Source: Vermamoeba vermiformis | Taxonomy: Eukaryota | Direction of reading: 5' to 3' | DNA length: 64,000 bases | NCBI GenBank assembly: GCA_045837725.1 | Contig: JBEWZL010000027.1 | Location: forward strand, 1 to 64,000 | In this document: in pieces, positions 2,369 to 61,460 of the stretch | Numbering within the stretch: the first letter of the stretch is position 1 | Layout: every line of letters starts with the position of its first letter | Translations under genes and position numbers: made by a program | Notes under the pieces: generated by a model | Database searches by the model: none | Told to the model about the DNA's origin: nothing | The model's input: only the letters and a program-made list of their open reading frames with translations

Positions 2369-2668
2369 TTTTGAGGTGGCACCTGCCGCTAACTTTTAGT
2401 TGTTTATAGAATAGAAAAACCGCGATAATATTTAAATTGCTGTAACTTTAATAAAAACGATTTTTTCGTTCAATCTTTCGGCTTGATCTTGAATACTTTC
2501 ATTATGAATCGCTTTGTTTTTAGTACTGAATGTTACGCTGCGTGTGAAATGACCGAAATTCCTTTGGTTCCGAAATTTCAGGCCTTTTTGGCCACGTGAT
2601 CGAACATTCTACGCCGCAATTTAAATAGAAGCGGACCAGAACTGCGTTATTTTCGAATATTGTGCAAG

Positions 2669-3460
2669 ATGAATACTTCTTCATATTTGCAACTAAACGG
2701 CAGAAAGGCGCTTGTTACCGGCGGAACAAAAGGCATCGGACAGGCTGTCGCTAAAGCACTGATGGATCAAGGCGTGCAAGTTCTTGTAGCAGCAAGATCA
2801 AGACCAGAGCATCCCTTAGAAGAGCCACATATGTTTGTTGCAGCGGACGTATCGACATCAACTGGCTGCGCGCTGGTTGTACGAGCCGTCGAAGAGCACT
2901 TCAAAGGTGTTGACATCATAGTCCATGTAGCCGGTGGATCATCAGCGCCTTCTGGAGGATATGCAGTACTCGGTGATGATGAGTGGCAAAGAACAATGGA
3001 TCTCAATTTAATGTCCGCTGTGCGGATAGACAGAGCCTTACTTCCGAATATGGTAAGGCGAGGTTCAGGAGTCATAATCCACGTTACATCGATTCAAAGC
3101 AAGTCCCCGTTGTACGAAGCCACAATAGCCTATGCCGCCTCCAAAGCAGCATTGTCAAACTACAGCAAAGCCTTGTCCAAAGAAGTCAGTCCGAAAGGCA
3201 TTCGCGTCGTTCGAGTTTCACCTGGTTGGGTTGAAACTGAAGCCGCAGTTGGACTAGTAGAAACTATTGCGACAGAAACGAAGATATCAGTTGACGTTGC
3301 CAAGCAATTGCTCATGAATTCACTTGGAGGTATTCCTATTGGTCGTCCAGCCAAACCAAAAGAAGTAGCGGACTTGATCTGTTTTCTCTCATCTCCTCTC
3401 GCGGCTTCAATTACTGGTACGGAATACGTTATTGATGGAGGCACTATCAACACTGTATGA
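2669..3460 (+). CDS. Short-chain dehydrogenase/reductase, intronless, bacterial-like
   Basis: TGGTKGIG Rossmann motif, YAASK catalytic motif, VSPGWVET, and C-terminal ITGTEYVIDGG. Confidence 0.92.
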   Translation: MNTSSYLQLNGRKALVTGGTKGIGQAVAKALMDQGVQVLVAARSRPEHPLEEPHMFVAADVSTSTGCALVVRAVEEHFKGVDIIVHVAGGSSAPSGGYAVLGDDEWQRTMDLNLMSAVRIDRALLPNMVRRGSGVIIHVTSIQSKSPLYEATIAYAASKAALSNYSKALSKEVSPKGIRVVRVSPGWVETEAAVGLVETIATETKISVDVAKQLLMNSLGGIPIGRPAKPKEVADLICFLSSPLAASITGTEYVIDGGTINTV

Positions 3461-27219: not shown

Positions 27220-29227
27220 ATGTCCTCAACAAGCGAGGTGCGTAAAATGAAAATTGGATGCGTTTCATTTCAAAATCTTTTATTTTAAATACCGCACGCG
27301 TTTATACGTAATTTTATTCACGTCAAATTAGGATTAAATAATTGGTTTGGTCTGTTCATTTTTTTGAAAAGGAACTTCAAGTGCTGGATCACACGAACGT
27401 GGAATGCGAAGAAAAGAGTGAAGATCAAGAGGAATATTTTGATCCTAAATTAATACCAGTGAATCATACATTAGATAACGAATACAACAAAAATTTATCG
27501 TTACGCAGCGGATTAAGAAGATGCAACCACCCGCACAGACCTGATTTCGATCAAATAATAATTGAAGATGGCTTGACATACAATATGGACGATAAAGGCA
27601 ATCCTTATTGGGGCGAAGGCATTTATTATCAGCTCAGCGAACCGTTAATGAAAAATATCAAAGAAGCCACGCAGGAACTTCATAATTTATGCATGAAAGC
27701 ACTCGATAGTATTGTGGCTAAGGATGAATATTTAACAGCGTTGCGGATCCCTAGCAAATTTTGGCCTTTGTTGAGAAAATCTTGGAACCGAAAAGATCCA
27801 CATTTGTACGGTAGATTTGACTTGGGCTTATCACCAGACATCAATATACCACCTAAACTATTCGAATATAACGCCGATACACCTACTGCGTTGTTAGAAA
27901 GCTCGGATATTCAAGAACGGTGGATGAAGGGCGTGATCGGACCGAACCGCAAACAATTCAACGAACTGAAGCAGAATTTGGTCAGCAGATGGGCAGAAAT
28001 TAAGCCTATATTGTTAAAGAGGCTAGGAGGATGGTTCAGATGGAACGTCAAAGTTCACTTTACTGGAGTGCCCGATCCAGAAGATCTCGCAACGATCAAC
28101 GTTTTAAAATCTACCGCAGAGACTGCAGGTAACGTTAACATACTAATGAGTGTTCATAACCCTATCTTAGAGAATAATTCGGAATTACGTCGATGCGCAT
28201 TAATTTATTTTGTATTTTGAACCATGTCGACGCATTTTTTTCATTAGTTCGTCAATTATTATTAGTTTGTTAAAGCTGCGCTACGCGTTGGAAATTTCGC
28301 GTTTTTTGGCAGAATAAAGTTGATAATTTTTTTTTTGTCCTTGTCGCGTACTGACTTGCCGTGCAGTTAGCATAAGATAACTACTAACCTCATATTATTA
28401 TTTAGGTATTCAAACAGACTTCTTGGCGATATCGGACCTCGGTTGGAACGACCATTATTTTGTGGACTTGAACGACAAGAAGATCGAGGTACTGTTCAAG
28501 TTGTATCCGTGGGAATGGCTCGTTATCGAAGAATTCTCTGATTTCTTGTTAGAAGATACTACTATACTCATCGTAAGTACTACCTACAGCCGCCGAATGA
28601 TTGAAATTTGGATGCGATCCGGATTGCGATTAACCGTAAATTGTCTTCGTAGGAGCCAATCTGGAAAATGATACTAAGTAACAAAGCGGTGTTACCTATA
28701 TTATGGGAGCTATTTCCTAACCATCCGAACTTATTGCCCGCGTACTTTAATGAAGAAGACGCGAAGAAGCATCTGTCTGCGCAGGGCTACGTGAAGAAGC
28801 CTATTTTCGGTAAATATGATGTATTCATAAACGATGGTATATTAATGGTTCATCTATATAGGTCGTGAGGGCGCAAACGTTACAATCGTAACGGATGGAA
28901 AAGAGGAGTACTCATCCGAAGGTAAATTTGTGTAACACGGAACAATAGAAAATTTATATTAATGCCAATAATTATAATATAGGACAATACGGAGAAGAAG
29001 GATTCATTTACCAAGAATTCTTGCAAGTCCCGCAATTCGAGACGGAGAAAGGAAAATGGAGCGTGGTCGTTGGATCTTGGGTTATTGGCGACAAACCCTC
29101 GGGAATATGCCTAAGAGAAAGTAGTACTGCAGTTACGACTAATACGAGCGTATTCTGTTGTCATGTGATTCAATCTAAAGCTCCATCTGATTCTGAAAAC
29201 AAAACGAATGAACATTTACCCGTTTGA
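27220..29227 (+). CDS. Glutathionylspermidine synthase-like (YgiC/YjfC) ATP-grasp ligase, multi-exon
   Basis: [73 protein letters not shown] and CLRES. Confidence 0.9.
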
Positions 29228-33849: not shown

Positions 33850-36800
33850 TTATAGAGGTATTTGATCGAGCTTTTCAAGAACTTTCTCGATAGTAAGGCG
33901 ATAACTTGGATCGACTACGCAGCATTGGTTCAGCAACGACGAGAAGTCACTGAAGCACTCTAACGACGATGGCAATTCAGGCGTAAGTCCTTCATCTCTG
34001 ATTTTTCGACCGACTTCGATCGGATCTTCATTTACGTGCGGTTCTTGCTGCGCCAGAATTTCGTACATGAGAATACCGAATGACCAGACATCTGGATAAT
34101 TGGAAAAATCAGTTAAATAACCCCAATAATATTATATCGTTCTTTTTTGGCTATTGTCAAATTTGTTTCGTAAAGTTTAATTAAACTAAGCTGAAAAATT
34201 CTGAGATCTTGATCTGGATCAGCAATGGTACACGTAAGAAGTTATGGGTGTATCGACTTATGTCTTACCTGACTTGGTGGAGTACTCTTTAGCCCTTAGC
34301 GACTCAGGTGCCATCCAACGAATAGGTCCTAATTCAGACTTGGTCGTGCCACGTTGCTGCTCTTCATCGACCAATCGCGTCATGCCAAAGTCAGTCAATT
34401 TAGGCTCGCCTTGATGCAACAAAACATTTCTAGCTGCAATGTCGCGGTGCACCAAGTTATTCGCGTGTAAATGACTGATGCCTTTACAAATACTCTTCAG
34501 CCAATAGAGCTTTGTGCTCGGGTTAATAGCGCTATTTTGGTCGTATAATAGCGCGTCTAATGATCCGCCATTGCAATATTCGAGAATTAATATGATGCTA
34601 TTTGTTTCGGGATGTACGCTGAATCCGAATAACTGAACGACGTTCGGATGAGGTCTCATATTGATCATTAATGTTAATTCTGAAGCGATACTTTGACTAG
34701 CTTGCGTCATGCTGGTTTTGAGTGCCACATCCGTGTTCTTCCACTTGCCTTTGAAAACTTGGCCGTTCGCGCCTTGTCCGAGCTGAGTTCCAAATTGAAG
34801 ATCATTAAACGGCACGAACCACTGTCCAAATTGCTGTTCTAATCCGACTGCTATAACCTTTGCACTTCTTTTTCGTTGATTTTTTCTTCGAATTAAAATA
34901 AACGCGAGAATGCCTCCTGCGATTGCAACAGCTCCAATTGGCACTACTACAGCGATAATAATTATGTTTGAATCATTTCCGTTGTTAGGTTGATCAGTTG
35001 GTGCTAGAAGGGTGCTTTGAGGCTGCTCGATTTCCGTTACATTCGGTAAAGGCAAGTCCAGCGTTAAAATTAAAACCTCGTCAGTGTAATATCCGCCTAA
35101 TCTATGATATCCTCCAGCGATGACTAATCTAGTTTGATTTGTAGCTGATCGTGTACTCAGTACGAAAATTGATGCCGGTACAAATGAATTATTGAACGGC
35201 TGTTGCGCCCAATGCAGTTCTGAAATATCCATATAGCTGAAATAGTCCATATTATCTCCAAATGCTAAGATCCAATTGTCGTACATCGCCAGAGAGACCA
35301 TCTTGTCATGTGTTTGGAATGATGGGCCGGTCCAAGTGCCGCTCGCAATGTCGTAAATAGCGACATCAGTGAATAAGAGACTTTTCGTCACAGGCAATAT
35401 GATTTTGTTATCGCTAGCAAGAGTTTGTAGAGGCTGGCCTAATACTTGCGTTGTACTTGTTTGTACGGAAAAAGTTGACGGAATAATTTTAATTCCGATA
35501 TTTGTACGGAGGCCAGAATAAGCCACATTATTGATAACAGGCAACGGTGTGTATGTAGGATGAGTCAATGGTGCAAGTCCGTTTAATGTGTACGTTGTCC
35601 AGCCACCAGTATTATTCGGTTGAATAACGCCTGTTGTACCACCAGTAAGGTAAATACTAAGTGTTTCGTTGAGTACGAATGTGGCGTAATATTGATGTGG
35701 GACATATGTTGACTCTGGCAATAGTATTGGCTGCTCCCATGTGTTATTCACGTAGTTATATACGTCTATTGCGTTGTATGAATTGAAGTCAACTGGATTT
35801 TCGTTTAACGGCGCAGTATTCAGTACGAAGCAAACGTCGCCTTGCTGGACCCAAAGCGGTTGCTGTTTGGACATTGATACTATTTGATGAGTCGTATATT
35901 GTACATCGACTGCCAATCCACGTTCGAAGTTGAAGAAAAAATTCTCGATGAGCACATCCGGGATCCAAACTAGTTTTTGTGTGTAAGGGATTCCAGCTGC
36001 ATCTACAGAAATTGCATATTGATCTGTTCCGTTATATAATCCGGCAATATATACTGAATTGTTGCTACGAAATATTCTGACTGGCGTGAATAGATTCGGA
36101 TCTGATATTAGAACTAACTTCTTCGTGTTTGAGTTGTAGCCAAATATGCCACCAGTAGTATTCGCTATGAAGTACATTGATGAATTAAATGCAATGGATA
36201 GTGCTGCAGGTCCGACATCGACAGTTTGAGTTTCGGATGTGGCCGGTGTCAAGATTGACATTTCATTCGCTGCAGAATAGACCAGTTGATCGCCAATAGT
36301 GAATGCGAAGTTGATTTGAGTGCGCGGTGTCCATGTCTCGTTCATGAACTGCCAATCGATCGTCCAAAAGCCATCTGAAAAGAATACTATGGTGCTGTTT
36401 TGATAGTGCACGGATGTAACGGATCTACCAGTTGTCGTTCTTTGACGCCACTTTTGCGATGAAGTATGGTAGACGAGACATATACTATCAAAATTAACTA
36501 CTACTGCTCCATGGTCTTCGTCAAACCAAGATCCAACGAATGAACCAGATGTAGGTGGCAAAACGTTTTGAAATTCAAATGGCTCGGCTGAGGTTGAATT
36601 GATCATCCAAATGCTCGTTGACGGTAGTTGAGTCGTAATATTAACGCCACCAATAACGAACACAAAGTTGTGGTGCGCAATGGTTGTCATATTGAAAAGT
36701 TGGAGCATGACATCCGTCGTTAATTTTTCATTGTGAGTCCAGCGCTTCGTATTCGTGTCCATAAAATCAACTGAGAAATAGCCAATGACTGTAAGCGTCG

Positions 36801-37233
36801 AATTATGAAGCGATAATCGGATTGGACGTCGGACTGTCGGTCCGGAAGTAAATCCGACAGATGTAAAATCCTTTTGGGCGGTTGAATATTCTGAGGGAAT
36901 GCTAGTGTATTCATGACCACCGACCATATATATTCTATCACCAATGACAGTGGTTGAAATGCGGCCTCGAGCTGTAGTTAAGTTGATCGCAAGATCTGAC
37001 CAATTTCCAGTAACCAAATCAAAGACGTCTATAGCGTTAGAGGCAATAAAATCATTATTCTCATAGCCTCCAACAAAATAGATCTTCTTATCCACTTCAA
37101 TCGTTGAGAAATAAGCTCGCTTGGAGGACATCCGAAATTTTTCCTCGATCTGAACAGTTGCCACCACGATTTCCGCCATCGCCAATATTAAAATCAATAT
37201 TTTAATATTACTAAGCACAGATGGATGTCGCAT
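33850..37233 (-). CDS. Receptor-type TKL protein kinase with a kelch/beta-propeller-like ectodomain, 2 exons
   Basis: Signal peptide, kelch-like repeats (IYFVGG, IYMVGG, VFVIGG, LVIAGG) and a TM helix. Kinase motifs GQGANG, VALK, HRDIAARN, DFG and PIRWMAPE. Last exon is 33850-34090. Confidence 0.9.
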
Positions 37234-37786
37234 CTTGATTCATCCTGAAAAAACCGAAATTAGATCGAGGTGACAAATTGCCAACGGAAAATATAATCAA
37301 CGCTGCGAATGAATATTACCAATAATGCAACTATGATTTCATTCAACTCTTCGTGGTGCTCTTTTGCTTTGCGTCGAGTTAATGTGATCTTCGGGACCGA
37401 AAAGACTCCGGACGCAACGGCTGAAATAGATCTTAAACTTTTATGACTATTTGAGTTCAGCTGATATTTTAGCTAAAATAAATAGTGCCATATCATTATG
37501 ATCGTAGTCTACGAGGAACAATTAATTACTTGCCGACGAGGGATTCTCGAAGAAGACCACTTCGGATGTGGATGTACGAAAAAGTTAAAAGCAAACCAAA
37601 TCTAAATATAAAAAAGATATTAAGCCTTGTGATAAGTTCAATAGCGCAATATAATACTTACTAATAGAGCGACCATGGCATATAAAAGCAACCGAAACCA
37701 AGATCTCAAGAGTACCAAAGCGTGCAGTCCAGCCATTAAAGTACAAAGTATGACACGTGTCAAAGTGTCATTTTATTTCGTTTTTT

Positions 37787-55054: not shown

Positions 55055-57156
55055 ATGAAACAACAGTTTTCTCACTTGCATCGAGCAGAGAGCGGCCTTT
55101 TTGCTGCGTTGCCAAACTCTCAACGAGGTACATCTGCCGCTGATGGAACAAGGTGCGTAGTATGCTATGGATATGATTATTTTAGCGATATACGCTCGTT
55201 ATAGAGAGCCGTATCAAATTCCTGTTCCATTCGGTAGATCGCAAGTGTCGTTTTCACTGACATTCCTATTTTATTCAGTTCCTTCTCGATATTCATCACT
55301 ACAATTAAGGGATATGTAGGCGTGGGTATATTATCTATACCTTTTTCATTTTATCAAGGCGGTTTGGCGGTAAGAATACTATTTCCGAAATATTTCAAAA
55401 ATGGATCTGAATCCGTTATTCAGTTTTCTCTGGCTGCCTACCTGTTGATTGGGTTCCTATCTCTTCATACAATGCTCCTTCTAGTAGACTGCAAAAATGC
55501 TCTATTGACACGCGGCAGATCTGTTTCAACGTTTTCGGATCTTGTAAGCATTCAGCGAACAATTTTTTATTTGTCATTCAGCATATTAATAATCAATATG
55601 CAGGGAGGAGAGCTATTAGGGCGCTACGGGACTCATTTAATTGATATACTGCTTTTGGGTTCACAAGTACGAAATGAAATTACGCCAGCGTGTCAAAGTG
55701 TCAAAACTCATCGAGCATTTCAATAGATAGCTTATGCGACTTCAGTGGTCATTTTTGTGAGCACTAATTTGGCTTCACTATTTGACTGGCCAAGCGGCGT
55801 TTCCGAGCTCGGCCAGAGGTGGATCTGGATGTCGCTCATTTTGCCGATCTTGATCCTGCTTTCGCTGCTCCGAAGTATCAAATGGCTTACCCCTATTAAT
55901 GTCGTAGCCTTATTCATATTCATGTTTGGATTCATCGTTGTGTGTTATTTCGGTATGTAACCAGGGCAATGAGATTTTGTGGTTCATTTTGCTGATCTTG
56001 TCCCATTAAGGAATGTCTTATCGCATGTCCATCCCCGGAGATACCTCCGATGATATAGGTCGCGTAGAGATGTTGCACACGAATATTTTCGATTGCACTT
56101 CTACGATAGCTTTGGCAATTTACAGTTTTGCTGCAATTGGAATGGTGTTGCCTATGGAAGAGTCAGCTAAAGATAAGCACAGTTGTAAGTCATATAACTC
56201 ACTCTATTTAATACCATATGATTTCTTATCTTTCGCTTCCATACAATAGTTCCCATTGTGTTCGCTGCTGGCACTTGGATCATGGTTGCTGGTTTGATAA
56301 TGTTCGGTGCTATTGGATACGTTTGTTTTGGCGATCAGATTGAATCTAGTGAGTACATCTATATAATAATAATTGCTTAAATAGTGTTGTGCATTTCACA
56401 CAATTGTTACGTAATTCTAACAGACTTGCCTTTTATAGTAATATTAATGAATCTCGACGACACCTTGCACCAAACAGTCATGTTGCATGCGTTGAAGAAA
56501 ACAATTCAAATCGGATTCATCATTGGAGCGTTGTTCGGATACCCCATGTGCTTGTGGCCAGTGATCCAACGATTGGAAAATATGATTTTCTTCAAACAAC
56601 CACCCGCTATCGCTCAAAGCATTAATTATGTGACATCTGACGAAGAGGCACCAGCAGATTTAACACCGCGACACTCGATCCAAGAGACCGAATCCGTGAA
56701 CAGCGAAACTTCTGAGCCTGAACCAGACGTTAAAGTGATTAAGACTCCTTTTCCATTGAAGTTCAACTTTGGCTTGGAAATGAAGCGAAATTTCTTGCGC
56801 ATTGGTCTCGTGTTCGGCACTGTCATTCTCGCCGTCGTAGTGCCGTCATTTGATCTGTTCATTTCAATCATTGGCGCTACTTTTGGTACTTCCCTAATGC
56901 TCATCGTAAGTATAATATTACCATTACTAAAATTAAATCGGTGGATATTGACTTACTTCGTAAAAAGGTTCCTCCGGTCTTGCACATCCAAGTCCAAAAA
57001 TTGATGATGAACGAGCCTGAACAATCTCGCTATAAGATCAAAGCAGTTATTATTAAGGACATTATTTTAGCTGTTTTTGGCGGCTTTGCGTTGTTCCTCT
57101 GCACTTCAGTCACCGTTCGAAACATTATTTTGCATTACGTCAAGCATACTGAGTAA
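55055..57156 (+). CDS. Amino-acid transporter (Aa_trans/SLC36-like), multi-exon
   Basis: IKGYVGVGILSIPFSFYQGG, AIYSFAAIGMVLPME, GYVCFG, YPMCLWP and VVPSFDLFISIIGA. The start may lie further upstream. Confidence 0.88.
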
Positions 57157-57261
57157 TGTTCATATAATGTTCCGTTTCCTCTTATTTATTCTTGTAAATA
57201 GTACCGCATATTATGTTAATAAATTGTTTTTGAACTTACGGACCGTTTATTATTTTTTGGT

Positions 57262-60200
57262 TCATTCGTCTTGATCCGCTTCTTCGGCACCATCAACCGG
57301 CAAAATTTGTTCAATATTGTTCTTGATAATCTCGTCGATGTTATATTCGCTGTCTTGTAAGGTATACGCCATTTTAGGATCGCCTTTGACGAACACTAGA
57401 ACGTTTTGATGATTTCTTGCAATTTTCTTGCTGCTATTGTACATCTTCTGCACGGTGAATCTTTTGCTGCCGAGGTGATTGACTAATATCAATTCATTAT
57501 AATACTGCATGCCTGCATTTTCAAAGGCTCTAATTGTATCGGCAACGAATGGAATGCTTTGTCCGATGCCTTGTCGATCACGGAAATCGCACACGACGAA
57601 TACAGCAAATCGATTTTCTTTCAATAGTGCCACCGTTTGTTGAATAATTTTCTAAGAAATAAATTAGGTTATTTTTGTTTCCTAAAATTCAGTAATTACC
57701 GAATAATCATTGAAAAATTCTTCGTATGACGGCAATCGACTCAAATCATAAGGATCATTGCTGTATACTTCCAAGTCTGTAATAATCATTAGATGATTGC
57801 TTAAAATGAGTTAGATCCGTACCATAGAAAGGTGGACACGAGAAAATGAAGTCAAATTTGTCTTCCTCTTTGATGTTGTTCGGATCTAGGTTATAATGGC
57901 CGGCAATAAGGTTTGTTATATTTCTGCTGTCGCCTTCAATCCATGTCGCAGGAATTTTGGTGCGGATGCGTTGAAGTTGGTACTTGTTTTGAGTAATTTG
58001 GTCTTTTCTTAGTTCGACACCAGTATACTAAAAAATAATTAGCTTAGTTTCAGCAATAGTTATATTATTTGCTTACTTCTAGTCCAAGACAGCTAGCAAC
58101 AATGCCTCGAATAGATCCGGCGAATGGATCCAGGACCCTAATAACACCATCAGAATAGTGATACCATATTAATGATGAGCGAATATTACCTGCCACTTGG
58201 CGGACAAAACCATCTAAACGATATTTCGGCCAATGTCGGATCGAACACACTCACATCCGCGAACGTGAGGACTTTATCCCAATACTGCTCTTTAAACTCT
58301 TTTGTCGTTAATTTTCTACCGAGCTCGGCCTCTTTTTTGCTCTTTTTCTGGTAAAACTGCGCATCTCGCAGATGAGCCGCATGGATCGTGTTGCTGGTTT
58401 TGTGCATCTCAATACCACGACTCCCTTGAAGCAAAAATCATTAATAAGACACCCATTATATAGTAGGACATACTGTTAATGCCAAGACTATGCCACATCT
58501 TATTTCGTTGCCGCCAGTTTCCTTGTCTGGTGTCCAAAAATGACTGCGGAACAACGAGAAATCGCTCAGCCAAAGAGCCCTTTAATTTCTCGTGCTCGGT
58601 GACTTTGATTTTCTGTCTTTTGTTTCGAATAGCCTTCGTCTTTTTCTTCGCCAAATCAACAACCTCGCCGGTCTCCAAGTCATAAAAATATTTATAGAAA
58701 AACTCTTTGACCTTCGGTTCAGCGTCTTCTCCATTTTTAGCAGCTAGTTCTCGTTTTCTTAGAACGGATTTATACTCTTCTAAATGATAAATAGCGCATT
58801 TTTCGAGAATTGTGTCCTCTAAAGAAAAGTCAAAAATATTTCCAAATATGGTAATATTAATTCAAATTACCGTAGTTCTCGTCAAAGTGATTAGAAGAGA
58901 CTAATTCATTCGGCTGAAATTCTTCTAAGTCATCGTCTTCCCATTTGAAATGCTTGGCAGGTTCATAGAACCATCGAACAACAAGCTTTCGCTCATCTGT
59001 TTCGTCGTCAGAACTCAACTTAATTTTTCATTAATATTAACGTACCGTCCTCAATTTTAATGTCTTCAATTCGGCAAAACCAATTTTCATCACCGCCGTT
59101 GAGAATAACGTAATCTCCTTGTTTGTACTCGACTCCTTCGAGCATGAAGGATTTACTGCTCGATAACTGAGCCATGAATGCTGAATAGCTAAATAAAATA
59201 TTAATAACATGTCTACGAATTATTAATATTATTTACCTTTTAACTGGCACGTCTTCATCGTTTGTTTCGTAGAGTTGTCTGTCATCAATAAATTCTTCTT
59301 CCTTCTCGCCGTTGGTATTATTATTATTAACGTTCGTATTATTTATATTAATATTGTTTCGTGGCTTGTAAATCGTTGTCAACGGCTCTTTTGGCTTTGA
59401 ATAAGGTATTTTTTGAACGGATCCGTTTTGCTTTGTACCTTTTGCTCTTGGTTTTGGCTTTTGCTCTTCCTCGTCGGGAGGCGGGATTTCTTCTAATTCG
59501 TCGTCGAGTTCTTCAATAATTATTTCTTTCTTTTTGCCCGCTTTAATTCTGCGAATTGCTTCTTGGATCGGCGACATCTTGGTGCGTGGCTCGTCGTCAC
59601 TAATTTCTTCGATTTCATCTGCTCCATCCAATGAATTTCGTTTCAATCTTCTTAATTTCTTCGATTTTGGCTTCTTCTCGAGTATTTCGTTCACGTCAAT
59701 GTCGTCAGACACGTACTCGGGTGTTTCTAGCGTAAATTTTGTTTGTTCAGTCGAGGCTTGAACTTCGACAGAATTATCCACTTCAATAACTTCTTTAGTC
59801 TCCTCTATAACTTCTTCTTTTGCTACGATCTCTTGAGGCTCTTCGACAACATCCATTTTTGCTGTGGTTTCTTTAGTCTCTTCGACAACATCTTCTTTTG
59901 CTATGATTTCTCGAGGCTCTTCGACATTAGCTCTTGTTTTTTCGTCGAGCTTTTGTACAGACTCTTCAACAACATTTTCTTTTGTTTTGGTTTCTTGAGG
60001 CTCTTCGCCATTAGTTTTAGTTTGTTCGACTTGGGGTTTTTGTACACGCTTTTCAACAAGCGATGCAGGGACCTCTGTAACCTCTTCAGCGCTTTGCTGC
60101 TTTGCACCAACAAAAAGTCGACCAAATAGTCCTTTGCTTGGAGGACTCTTTTCTTCCACTTTCTCATCCGGAACTTTTGGATGCAGCTCCTCAACGGCTT

Positions 60201-60918
60201 CTTCGATATTACTATCGGTAATGATATCCTCAACACCATTTTCATACATTTCAGGCTCGATTTCCTGCACGTCTTCAATAAGGTCTTCAGTTTTCTTCGG
60301 TTTCGCACGTGGATGAGCTGCAGATCTGTTGACTCGTGGTGCTTTAGCCTTGACTTTTCCTGGAAACAGTTCCTTCTCTCGTAAAGGAGGTGGCGGTGAT
60401 GACTTTGCACGATACTTTTGAACGACGCTGCTCGTGGTTGTCAAGTTTGGAAGATCGCCAAGATCCTCCTCTTTCTTTTTTTGAAAAGCTAAATTCTTTT
60501 TATTCTGATTTGAATTTGCTTGGTTGTAAATCATTTTTTTTCCATTTGGAGAATTTGTTTTAGCCATTTTACCAGGAGGCGACATTTCAATAAGATCCTC
60601 ATCTGCAAAATTATTATGTTTATTAATACTTCGAAGGAAAACGCAATAATATGCATAAATTAAGCATTTTATATGATTTTTTTTGCAAATAAATTAAACT
60701 TAAAAATCAAAAAAAGAAGATATTTATTTACCTTCTCGTTTTCGCTTTTTAGTGTCTGATCCGGAGTCTTGATCGCTATCTGCACTGCCATTGTTATTAT
60801 TAAGACCGGGTTCTTCGTTAGAATCGTCAGATATCTCTATTTGAGAGCGCTCATCTCTACGAGCCCGTTGATCGCCATCCGGCAGAACCGCAGAGAGCAG
60901 CCTCCGAAACGAAAACAT
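57262..60918 (-). CDS. BAH-domain + phage/bacterial-type DNA amino-methyltransferase (N4C/N6A) fusion protein with a long acidic N-terminal region, multi-exon
   Basis: Exons splice in frame. BAH: YKQGDYVILN...WFCRIEDI...VVRWFYEP...NELVSSNHFD...ILEKCAI. MTase: SLAERFLVVP.SFLDTRQG.W, SVFDPTLAEISFRWFCP, motif I VLDPFAG, YTGVELR, WIEGDS, motif IV FDFIFSCPPFYDLEVYS, LKENRFAVFVVCDFRD, HQNVLVFVKGDPK. Confidence 0.85.
59780..60010 (-). repeat. Imperfect 39-nt (13-aa) coding repeats EE(P/T)xExxAKExVV in the methyltransferase N-terminal region
   Basis: EEPREIIAKEDVV / EETKETTAKMDVV / EEPQEIVAKEEVI / EEPQETKTKENVV. Confidence 0.7.
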
Positions 60919-61460
60919 TTTAAACATAAATAACACACAATATTTAAAATGCTCGGCGACTTGAAACTCGTGGTGGAGGTGCCTGAAGCGAAGGAACAAA
61001 GCAACAAAAAACTTTTCAGTCAGAAATCAATCAAATCAGCAAATGCAACAACAATGATAATACTTATTAAACAAAATGCCCAATGATAAACAAAACCGAA
61101 GCCTACCTTCGCTTAAAAGGCTGGATGAAGTAATTTAGGGCGAGATTTGGTTGCTTATGTTTGGCTCTTTTATTTCCGAAATATTTCAATTAATTTTGCG
61201 CAATTAATTTTATAGAAGATGAAGCTGTAGCAATTCAAATTTTACAAGTCCGTCATAAAAAAATCGGATGTGCCTTTGTCACAAGGTAAGTTGTTTAACT
61301 TGGCAATAATTATTTTATTTTGCTAACTAACTATTTCGGTGTTAACGAATTTTATTAATTCTAAATTTAGGTTTGTCCGCTTGGTCGAATCTCAAGATCA
61401 GTTCACCATTTATCCGTTTGACCGGTCACCACTCAAGTTGCCCTCGTTATACTAAGAATT

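Follow-up and report, generated by a model that had tools for sequence, protein, structure and literature searches.

The 64-kb stretch of DNA analysed here (the window) contains a single copy of a gene that joins a BAH domain to an amino-methyltransferase (MTase) module. This BAH-MTase gene lies on the minus strand between positions 60918 and 57262, and its 10 exons are spliced in translation to one frame of 1044 aa with no internal stop. The nine introns measure, from 1 to 9, 129, 48, 49, 52, 49, 52, 49, 46 and 48 nt, and every one of them has GT and AG at its ends. The open frame was obtained with the GT-AG model only, and at the acceptor of intron 3 it stays open with 58996 alone among the four candidates tried. 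It had been proposed from the letters of the sequence that GT-AG exons splice into one frame at this locus, and our reconstruction agrees, with all elements found where they had been placed, on the minus strand. The gene model comprises the following parts.

60918-60732, minus strand: exon 1
60918-60916, minus strand: start codon ATG of the spliced frame
60731-60603, minus strand: intron 1, which splits the N-terminal region
60602-59237, minus strand: exon 2
59188-59046, minus strand: exon 3
58996-58871, minus strand: exon 4
58818-58474, minus strand: exon 5, where the C-terminal end of BAH is followed by a basic linker (aa 641-684) and by SLAERF..., the first of the conserved MTase blocks
58424-58190, minus strand: exon 6
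58137-58077, minus strand: exon 7
58027-57823, minus strand: exon 8
57776-57700, minus strand: exon 9
57651-57262, minus strand: exon 10
57264-57262, minus strand: stop codon TGA of the spliced frame
57246..57251, minus strand: AATAAA, a poly(A)-signal-like hexamer 11 nt past the stop codon (direct reading)

An alternative in-frame ATG is present at 60927 and would give three extra residues.

The junction between BAH and MTase falls within the single exon 5. Since this exon runs from the end of the BAH domain through the linker into the first part of the MTase module, the fusion is independent of splicing. All transcript evidence for the gene comes from sequencing runs of relatives. In run X1, a contig set that may be RNA, contigs that are 95-99% alike skip five of the nine introns exactly (57652-57699, 58424-58472, 58819-58870, 58997-59045 and 59189-59236), and these bridged introns include both introns inside the BAH domain (59045-58997 and 58870-58819). 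No record bridged the remaining four introns. One RNA read in X7 skips the intron 58819-58870 as well, and RNA-seq reads of the relatives X6-X8 lie on the exons at low depth. Among the read differences listed for X1, X6 and X8, 30 of 34 are synonymous (synonymous to non-synonymous 9:3, 6:0 and 15:1, respectively), and in exon 10 as well as in the other MTase exons synonymous changes strongly exceed the others. The BAH-MTase gene is evidently under purifying selection.

A 990-aa orthologue from another organism (P0001) aligns to the window protein from end to end with 66% identity and is colinear over every junction. Eight of the nine junctions are free of gaps in this alignment, and a single K/R indel lies shortly ahead of the first junction. 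BAH and the MTase module are far better conserved than the N-terminus. The MTase domain reaches about 87-89% identity (89% over 307 columns) and the BAH stretch about 87%. Because a protein from another organism aligns over the full length, a gene model that arose by chance can be discounted. The same cluster includes two more 990-aa ORFs, whose contigs are 4930 and 4460 nt long. These uninterrupted ORFs on contigs of 4.4-4.9 kb, together with the junction inside exon 5, support the earlier suggestion that one gene carries both BAH and MTase.

Moreover, we found a second BAH-MTase lineage, represented by the 617-aa protein P0505, in which BAH, linker and MTase are colinear with the window protein at 41% identity and the BAH-to-MTase junction is shared. 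Pfam scores for this protein were measured on its 535-aa form (P0368), where BAH was matched with E=8.8e-19 (68 bits) and PF01555 with 29.2 bits. In trees calculated from the MTase columns only, the eukaryotic rows form one clade (SH-like support 97 with 208 rows, SH-aLRT 91 with 59 rows). The common junction and the single eukaryotic MTase clade were counted toward one single fusion event. Scans of metagenome DNA for P0001 and for P0505 found no encoding contig.

The recurrence of the same architecture in an independent orthologue and in a second lineage also makes it very hard to regard the locus as an artefact, be it contamination with bacterial or phage DNA, an assembly chimera, a pseudogene or a pair of separate genes mistaken for one. 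Such an origin could be suspected from the prokaryotic type of the MTase module and from further bacteria-like genes in the window, e.g. an SDR at 2600-3460 that is 67-72% identical to bacterial proteins. However, five spliceosomal-type introns of 46-52 nt are found within or between exons of the MTase, and the flanking genes are eukaryotic (Aa_trans, Kelch-kinase and LRR proteins). Given also the junction within one exon, the lack of internal stops and the purifying selection, we consider an artefact extremely improbable. A bdelloid rotifer as the source, which the introns of roughly 50 nt and the bacteria-like neighbours had brought to mind, is not supported, as no named rotifer protein occurred among the rows listed in the protein searches; the kinase ORF was assigned to Eukaryota at large, and Rfam and tRNA scans returned nothing.

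The first half of the protein has no resemblance to a known family in Pfam, as far as exon 2 is concerned, and is characterised by its composition.

59237..60918, minus strand: N-terminal region, aa 1-517, exons 1-2 (assigned by composition)
59791..60007, minus strand: imperfect acidic tandem repeat of 39 nt (13 aa) in 3.5-5.4 copies, inside exon 2

Residues 1-517 are acidic (pI 4.84, D+E 22%, K+R 17%) but contain basic patches (aa 57-61 and 372-383), and in the AF2 model of the orthologue pLDDT stays below 50 across this region. The N-terminus of the BAH-MTase is long, disordered, acidic as well as basic, and equipped with NLS-like patches. Both NLS-like strings named in the sequence-only reading, KKRKRE and KKPKSKKLRRLKR, are found in the spliced translation.

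The BAH domain follows, at a position close to the one first estimated (about 58700-59160).

58667..59130, minus strand: BAH domain, aa 538-658, exons 3, 4 and 5 (PF01426 match on P0001, mapped through the alignment)

The assignment is based on residues 480-601 of the orthologue, which match the Pfam family PF01426 with E=8.9e-12 and 45.4 bits (cut-off 30.8). When the window exons were compared one by one with Pfam, BAH was not matched, the domain being split over exons 3, 4 and 5. The closest solved relatives by sequence are the BAH domains of BAHCC1, an Arabidopsis BAH-domain protein (7cce), SHL, EBS, PBRM1 and RSC2. In pairwise HMMER and BLAST alignments of the window protein, P0001 and P0505, the cage residues W/W/Y and an H/D pair are matched to their counterparts in BAHCC1 and SHL. 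It has been shown for PtSHL that Tyr41, Trp63 and Tyr65 form the aromatic cage, while His88 and Asp90 hold H3S28 and P30 (PMC6013494). These positions correspond to Trp/Trp/Tyr and His/Asp in the window BAH, in which the predicted methyl-lysine cage and the His/Asp pair known from BAH readers of H3K27me3 are accordingly retained. The cage geometry is taken from the pairwise alignments only, as the AF2 model is of low confidence over the BAH part (pLDDT 30-63).

Behind the linker, exons 5-10 encode the MTase module.

57367..58588, minus strand: amino-methyltransferase module, aa 685-1010, exons 5-10 (phrog matches on P0124 and conserved columns)
58104..58136, minus strand: motif I, the SAM-binding loop, aa 802-812, reading VLDPFAGSIRG, with one Gly fewer than DPFAGGSVRG of the bacteria
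57824..57844, minus strand: motif IV, FSCPPFY at aa 883-889, forming the catalytic loop, with CPPY in the bacterial relatives

Residues 222-990 of the orthologue (P0124) match phrog_12517 from position 44 to 307 of its 316-position profile (E=1.3e-83) and phrog_498, named 'DNA methyltransferase', with E=3.1e-60. The AF2 model of this piece has a pLDDT mostly above 90 over the MTase module. The order of the two motifs, with VLDPFAGS (aa 802-809) ahead of FSCPPFY, is as first described. On Pfam, the family PF01555 (N6_N4_Mtase) gave 17.1 bits on window exon 10, below the cut-off of 26.7, and no match to P0001 at E<=0.1, while the bacterial relatives score 41-72 bits in two permuted stretches. 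The low scores of the family can be explained by the Pfam model, which follows the permuted motif order. In NCBIfam, no family came near its threshold for the MTase module. Surveys based on Pfam can overlook enzymes of this sort, and catalogues of eukaryotic N6A/N4C methylases that were built on PF01555 may be incomplete, given that P0001 is not matched by it.

The two motif deviations had already been raised as caveats, and they are stronger than was stated. The Gly deletion in motif I occurs in none of 370 bacterial rows, 360 of which have GG, and the last position of motif IV is Tyr in all 371 bacterial rows (Phe in 0/371), where 365 rows begin the motif with Cys and 6 with Ser. In addition, an Arg that is invariant in 204 long bacterial rows is replaced by Lys in the window protein. 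Together with the failure to reach the PF01555 threshold, these changes would fit an MTase module that is dead or weakened in the window lineage and serves as a scaffold binding SAM, DNA or a methylated base, so that the protein would act as an adaptor on chromatin and not as a writer. We regard this as rather unlikely, since of 80 columns with a conservation of 85% or more in 204 bacterial and phage domains the module retains 70, among them D, P and P in motif IV, DPF in motif I and further E, Q, N and H residues outside these motifs, and since synonymous changes prevail so strongly in the MTase exons. Moreover, the loop with a single Gly has the spacing of a solved methylase, aligning without gap to motif I of 2zie, and Phe belongs to the residues accepted at the last position of the amino-MTase motif [DNSH]PP[YFW], as given in the main text of a survey (PMC4738411). 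The sister lineage P0505 has retained the canonical FAGG and CPPY. Motif IV does not tell the target base, because its first residue, Cys, falls outside [DNSH].

The relationship of the module to phage enzymes is pronounced. Thirty phage records match P0124; among the 25 listed, identities range from 31 to 50%, all matches start at residue 395 or later and none reaches the BAH domain. Of the pattern matches in bacterial genomes, 408 of 424 are relatives, and the 80 bacterial relatives that were kept are 38-48% identical, all starting at residue 391 onward. In both loci examined, the bacterial homologue is a fusion of ParB and MTase, and terminase genes follow directly downstream of it.

L031:3566-4978: bacterial ParB-MTase in a ParB-terminase (Tls) locus
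L002:3611-5044: bacterial ParB-MTase in a ParB-terminase (Tls) locus

The homology to the prophage ParB-MTases extends from the SLAERF...RQG.W block over motifs X-I and motif IV to HQNVLVF.KG. The flanking signatures that had been associated with phage and prophage methylases (SLAERF..P.S.LD.RQG.W, S.FDP.L.E...RWFCP and HQNVLVF.KGDPK) are all present in the translation, and the phrog matches support their attribution. The window gene differs from the prophage genes in having BAH in place of ParB_N, which Pfam did not find in the window exons or P0001. Furthermore, it possesses introns, lies in a eukaryotic setting without a terminase neighbour, and shows the shortened motif I and CPPF where the prophage enzymes have DPFAGGS and CPPY. 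The MTase module is thus of prophage ParB-methyltransferase origin, and the window protein is a derivative of the phage ParB-terminase-locus MTase family, not a member of it in context. The top non-eukaryotic matches, P0130 and P0131, were considered as closer kin and rejected, as two tandem MTase modules sum the score in these proteins.

With regard to function, a B. cereus prophage ParB-MTase has been reported to produce m6dA in the DNA of E. coli, detected by LC-MS (PMC3459991), and another report (PMC3592412) places its gene next to the small terminase gene. The B. cereus protein BCE_0392 is a possible member of the MTase family of the window protein. Indirect support for DNA as the substrate comes from the name of phrog_498 (DNA methyltransferase), from the DNA-packaging loci in which the relatives reside and from the m6dA made by the B. 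cereus ParB-MTase. A role in silencing transposons or viral DNA, which had also been suggested from the sequence alone, gained no support from the analyses.

It had been noted as an objection that the C-terminal domain might group with RNA or protein MTases. At the level of the fold this is in part the case, since the best solved folds for the Rossmann core are the tRNA m2G methyltransferases Trm11, TrmN and Trm14 (16-19% identity to four m2G enzymes), whereas by sequence the domain groups with phage DNA-methyltransferase families instead. The tRNA enzymes share the Rossmann core and the unpermuted motif order with the window MTase. In contrast to them, with their THUMP domain and [DN]PPY motif, the window protein has CPPF. 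The module could accordingly methylate RNA, at guanine N2 or adenine N6 of tRNA, rRNA or chromatin-associated RNA, with BAH only localising the enzyme to chromatin. We consider this unlikely, as the fold matches extend to the Rossmann core only, the nearest sequence families are the phage phrog_12517 and phrog_498, and Pfam found neither THUMP nor another RNA-binding domain in the window exons or P0001.

DNA amino-methylation in eukaryotes is contested, and few writers are established. The domestication of a prokaryotic methylase by fusion to a histone reader is rare, with bdelloid N4CMT as the reference example. N4CMT is a captured prokaryotic amino-MTase with introns, of the permuted beta-class, with SPPY and a C-terminal chromodomain, for which the writing of a bacterial-type DNA mark has been shown (PMC8885841). 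It resembles the window protein in the capture, the introns and the fusion to a methyl-lysine reader, while the writing of a mark is only proposed for the latter. In N4CMT the catalytic motif precedes the SAM motif and reads SPPY, whereas the window protein has the unpermuted order and CPPF; likewise, the C-terminal chromodomain of N4CMT stands against an N-terminal BAH, and no chromodomain was found in the window exons or P0001. These three differences support the view, already expressed in the sequence-only reading, that the domestication is separate from that of N4CMT. Sequence searches of the PDB returned no listed chain with a molecule name identifying N4CMT.

Combining BAH with a DNA methyltransferase in one polypeptide is known from DNMT1 and the chromomethylases, where histone reading is coupled to DNA methylation, and a relationship in sequence between the BAH domains of DNMT1 and P0505 can be detected (E about 5e-4). 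However, these enzymes are C5-MTases (PF00145) of unrelated mechanism, while the window protein is an amino-MTase with PP[YF]. That published surveys might list a related clade proved correct in one respect: the main text of Iyer et al. describes haptophyte MTases fused to FHA ('group-1 clade 6'), for which it gives MTases of phage ParB-terminase loci as the source, but no BAH fusion occurs in that text (PMC4738411). Compared by the description in this text only, they share the kind of prokaryotic source with the window MTase. Our literature search found no paper with a BAH and amino-MTase architecture; supplementary domain tables, e.g. those of PMC4738411, may list one. A retrotransposon-DAM preprint and a Xiphinema preprint were considered as precedents and concern different enzymes. 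A domesticated prokaryotic amino-MTase with a chromatin reader is of a known kind, and the combination of BAH with a phage ParB-type MTase appears to be new.

Taken together, we regard the locus, with moderate confidence, as a functional nuclear gene of a short-intron eukaryote, in which a captured prophage MTase module received BAH in place of ParB and which would encode a predicted chromatin-targeted DNA amino-MTase. The amino-methyltransferase module of a prophage ParB-MTase would have been captured and would then have gained introns, and the ParB domain would have been swapped for a eukaryotic BAH and the long disordered N-terminus with its NLS-like patches. BAH may dock on nucleosomes with a methylated lysine, as its H3K27me3-type cage with His/Asp suggests, and the tethered Rossmann module, using SAM, could methylate the exocyclic amino group of a nearby DNA base, adenine N6 being a more likely target than cytosine N4. 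In this way, a defined state of chromatin would receive a DNA mark of bacterial type, following the logic of DNMT1/CMT and bdelloid N4CMT with a different enzyme family.

The BAH-MTase appears to be a good candidate for a new enzyme placing a bacterial-type mark on chromatin, concrete and clonable, in which a cage of the H3K27me3-reader type is combined with a methylase from phage packaging loci. Provided that the protein is active, histone state would be linked directly to a bacterial-type DNA mark, and the base specificity of the large and biochemically little-studied CPPY phage methylase family would become testable. A more far-reaching proposal, which we put forward tentatively as possible but doubtful, is that the BAH-MTase is a dedicated 6mA/4mC writer on H3K27me3-like, Polycomb-type chromatin in a small-eukaryote lineage, and the second independent 'bacterial mark' system after N4CMT. 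If true, this system would derive from a methylase of phage DNA packaging and would have existed long enough to split into at least two lineages that are about 41% identical. These lineages offer two natural versions for comparison, P0505 with canonical catalytic motifs and the window lineage with derived ones.

The 1044-aa window protein (BAH-MTase) is encoded in a eukaryotic genome by a spliced gene under selection, and unites in a single polypeptide a BAH domain and an amino-methyltransferase module of prophage origin. The gene model was built from stop-to-stop frames and the testing of GT..AG junctions, and has the following features:

ATG 60918 to TGA 57262, minus strand: BAH-MTase gene, ten exons in one 1044-aa frame
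Within the gene, minus strand: nine GT..AG introns of 129, 48, 49, 52, 49, 52, 49, 46 and 48 nt
aa 1-517, minus strand: N-terminus, acidic with basic patches
59310-59351 (21-nt, Asn-rich) and 59791-60007 (39-nt, acidic), minus strand: in-frame tandem repeats in exon 2
58818-58474, minus strand: exon 5, encoding the BAH end, the linker and the first conserved methyltransferase block
aa 685-1010, minus strand: MTase module, with matches to phage-family profiles
11 nt beyond the stop, minus strand: AATAAA hexamer, read from the sequence

One of four candidate acceptors of the third intron leaves the frame open, and an in-frame ATG at 60927 offers a possible three-residue extension. All strings quoted in the sequence-only reading were found in the translated model, which has a single copy in the 64-kb window (tblastn). 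The window is characterized by introns of ~50 nt, 39% G+C, eukaryotic neighbours and several bacteria-like genes.

Public runs were mapped over 57100-61100. Contigs of the near-identical relative X1, presumed to be RNA (a guess), are 95-99% identical to the window and exactly skip 57652-57699, 58424-58472, 58819-58870, 58997-59045 and 59189-59236. These are five of the nine predicted introns, and the bridging records cover those five only; they take in both BAH-internal introns as well as the one separating the N-terminal exon from the BAH domain. The 58819-58870 skip was also present in one RNA read of X7, one of the runs of a more distant relative (X6-X8), which reach a depth of few reads, most of them less than 90% alike to the window. 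Since exon 5 alone spans the BAH end to the MTase start, the domains are joined in the DNA and not by splicing alone. The proposed fusion in one gene is confirmed, with its junction inside exon 5 and five introns skipped in X1.

Searching with the last exon, we found P0001, a 990-aa 'hypothetical protein' with a Pfam BAH match that aligns to the window model from first to last residue (66% identity). Eight of the nine junctions are gap-free in this alignment, and one K/R indel lies just ahead of the first. The 90% cluster of P0001 has ten members. Among them, two more 990-aa ORFs come from contigs of 4930 and 4460 nt, whereas long contigs bear several short fragments, as would fit spliced transcripts and intron-bearing genomic copies side by side. 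Among the differences listed in the model's frame, synonymous to non-synonymous changes were 9:3 in X1, 6:0 in X6 and 15:1 in X8. In the alignment to P0001 the N-terminal half is far less conserved than the BAH and MTase module, with 89% identity in the MTase domain over 307 columns. The gene is under purifying selection, concentrated on the BAH and MTase domains.

No Pfam family was found in aa 1-517, a part with a pLDDT below 50 in the model of the orthologue. At 59311 and 59345 the X1 contigs break into dissimilar sequence, so the repeat part of exon 2 differs between close relatives. The BAH domain noticed in the sequence is borne out by PF01426, with 45.4 bits on P0001 and 68 bits on a second lineage. 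Its nearest solved relatives by sequence are BAHCC1, an Arabidopsis BAH-domain protein (7cce), SHL, EBS, PBRM1 and RSC2. In PtSHL, Tyr41, Trp63 and Tyr65 form the H3K27me3 cage, while His88 and Asp90 hold H3S28/P30 (PMC6013494); this pattern is also summarised in PMC13068663. P0001, the window protein and P0505, the 617-aa representative of the second lineage, all have Trp, Trp, Tyr, His and Asp at the five equivalent positions. We infer that the window BAH matches the H3K27me3-reader residue pattern, an assignment made on sequence alone, as the structure model is of low quality over the BAH domain (pLDDT 30-63).

The MTase module is of phage type, as had been suspected. P0124 (residues 222-990 of P0001) matched the profiles phrog_12517 (E=1.3e-83) and phrog_498, 'DNA methyltransferase' (E=3.1e-60). 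By tblastn against 50,697 phage records, 30 matched P0124; the 25 listed show 31-50% identity, and with no start before P0124 residue 395 these 25 all fall short of the BAH domain. Of 424 pattern matches in bacterial genomes, 408 are relatives; the 80 that were kept span many phyla (38-48% identity). Both loci examined, in Vibrio algivorus and Breznakibacter xylanolyticus, encode a ParB-MTase fusion with terminase genes directly after it, in one case followed by a portal gene too. The family is the 'ParB-terminase locus' methylase of Iyer et al., who predicted that it modifies the DNA of phages during packaging (PMC4738411). Aligned to the solved methylase 2zie, its catalytic-motif and SAM-motif regions match in swapped order. 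The family is thus unpermuted, whereas PF01555 is modelled on the beta-class, which is permuted; this is why PF01555 is weak or absent. The MTase module of the predicted structure mostly exceeds a pLDDT of 90.

Many prokaryotic relatives carry a fused PLP-dependent enzyme domain (PF00291) or Asp/Arg hydroxylase domain (PF05118), besides or instead of ParB; the chemistry of DNA modification at phage packaging loci may thus be more complex. P0130 and P0131 (716 and 719 aa) are an unusual duplicated form of the family, with two tandem CPPY modules and a Cys/His-rich tail, and without ParB.

Scored against 1.84 billion representatives, P0001 gave 3259 matches with E<=1e-3. Of the top 150, P0001-type fragments aside, P0368 (a 535-aa form of P0505) alone covers BAH and MTase. 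P0505 consists of a short acidic/basic N-terminus, BAH, MTase module and acidic tail, and is 41% identical to the window protein over 491 columns that run from BAH across the linker into the MTase. On the MTase columns alone, the eukaryotic rows group together in FastTree (208 rows, SH-like 97) and in an IQ-TREE mixture model of 59 rows (SH-aLRT 91, under the tool's star level of 95). The 59 rows comprise 22 of the 23 rows in the FastTree clade to which the eukaryotic rows belong (P0368 dropped) and 37 randomly picked from the 185 others; both trees were made without near-identical members and fragments. No particular bacterial donor stands out. Together, the shared junction and the grouping suggest that capture and fusion each happened once, before the split of the lineages. 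The architecture and phage origin first proposed are supported by the orthologue, the second lineage and the phage homologues. An artefact is excluded by the translation of the gene model, the X1 intron skips, the colinear P0001 and the shared architecture of P0505.

A local profile alignment of 368 proteins gave 622 domain rows of bacterial or phage origin, of which 204 with at least 250 aligned residues were kept for column statistics and 418 dropped. The window protein retains 70 of the 80 columns that are at least 85% conserved. Three of the ten differing columns matter. Motif I has lost one Gly (bacterial DPFAGGS; of the 370 rows that cover the site, 360 have GG), a deletion present in none of the 370; motif IV has Phe where all 371 bacterial rows have Tyr; and an Arg invariant in 204 of 204 rows is Lys. 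The caution raised earlier over CPPF and FAGS was therefore justified, both states being absent from the bacterial rows. These changes are fixed in both the window protein and P0001. The motif IV consensus is given as [DNSH]PP[YFW] (PMC4738411). Phe falls inside the last-position set, and the one-Gly loop aligns gap-free with motif I of 2zie, so the active-site changes are compatible with the predicted activity, yet unique. A rival reading suggested by these unique changes is a catalytically weakened scaffold.

In the proposed mechanism, the BAH domain would tether the enzyme to nucleosomes with a methyl-lysine mark of the H3K27me3 kind, and the module would methylate DNA close by, at an exocyclic amino group. 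Motif IV opens with Cys in 365 of 371 rows and with Ser in six; as Cys lies outside [DNSH], the motif does not tell the target base. Adenine N6 would be the more likely target by analogy with BCE_0392, a characterised and possibly related prophage ParB-MTase beside the small terminase gene, which yields m6dA in E. coli DNA by LC-MS (PMC3459991, PMC3592412). From the six SPPY rows, the family may include N4C enzymes as well. An RNA substrate is a rival reading, suggested by the fold neighbours.

Domestication of a prokaryotic methylase through fusion to a chromatin reader is a known principle, with several published examples: bdelloid N4CMT joins a beta-class SPPY enzyme to a chromodomain (PMC8885841), Dam enzymes of chlorophytes have PWWP/PHD domains as fusion partners, FHA-fused MTases of haptophytes derive from ParB-terminase loci (both PMC4738411), and DNMT1/CMT enzymes combine BAH with a C5-MTase. 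The window protein lacks the defining features of N4CMT, in line with the separate domestication proposed, and its genomic context places it outside the phage ParB-MTases, as a derivative with a new partner domain. We found no paper pairing BAH with this methylase type; such a pairing might be listed in supplementary files. The word BAH is absent from the main text of the Iyer survey (PMC4738411). The concept has precedents. Few enzymes of this field have been verified, and BAH-MTase adds a clean candidate writer that can be tested; the canonical motifs of P0505 (FAGG, CPPY) and the derived ones of the window protein and P0001 are a natural pair for comparison.

Neither a tRNA gene nor an Rfam family at the gathering threshold was found in the 64-kb window. 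Its other features are:

2600-3460, plus strand: SDR, single ORF, 67-72% identical to many 260-aa bacterial SDRs
27342-28220, plus strand: exon-sized ORF, glutathionylspermidine synthase preATP-grasp (Pfam E=6.9e-51)
34258-37239, minus strand: Kelch-kinase, uninterrupted 993-aa ORF, N-terminal Kelch repeats and C-terminal tyrosine-kinase-like domain
55238-57156, plus strand: Aa_trans amino-acid transporter, convergent with the BAH-MTase gene

The SDR looks like another horizontally acquired gene, and an 83%-identical copy occurs in a relative that carries a record of the BAH-MTase-orthologue type. Glutathionylspermidine synthase is mostly bacterial and kinetoplastid. A further exon is probable for the Kelch-kinase, since its kinase domain reaches the ORF end. 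About 105 nt separate the stop codons of Aa_trans and BAH-MTase, and both genes have an AATAAA of their own after the stop, so their 3' ends almost touch; most X6-X8 RNA reads over 57100-61100 lie on the Aa_trans 3' end.
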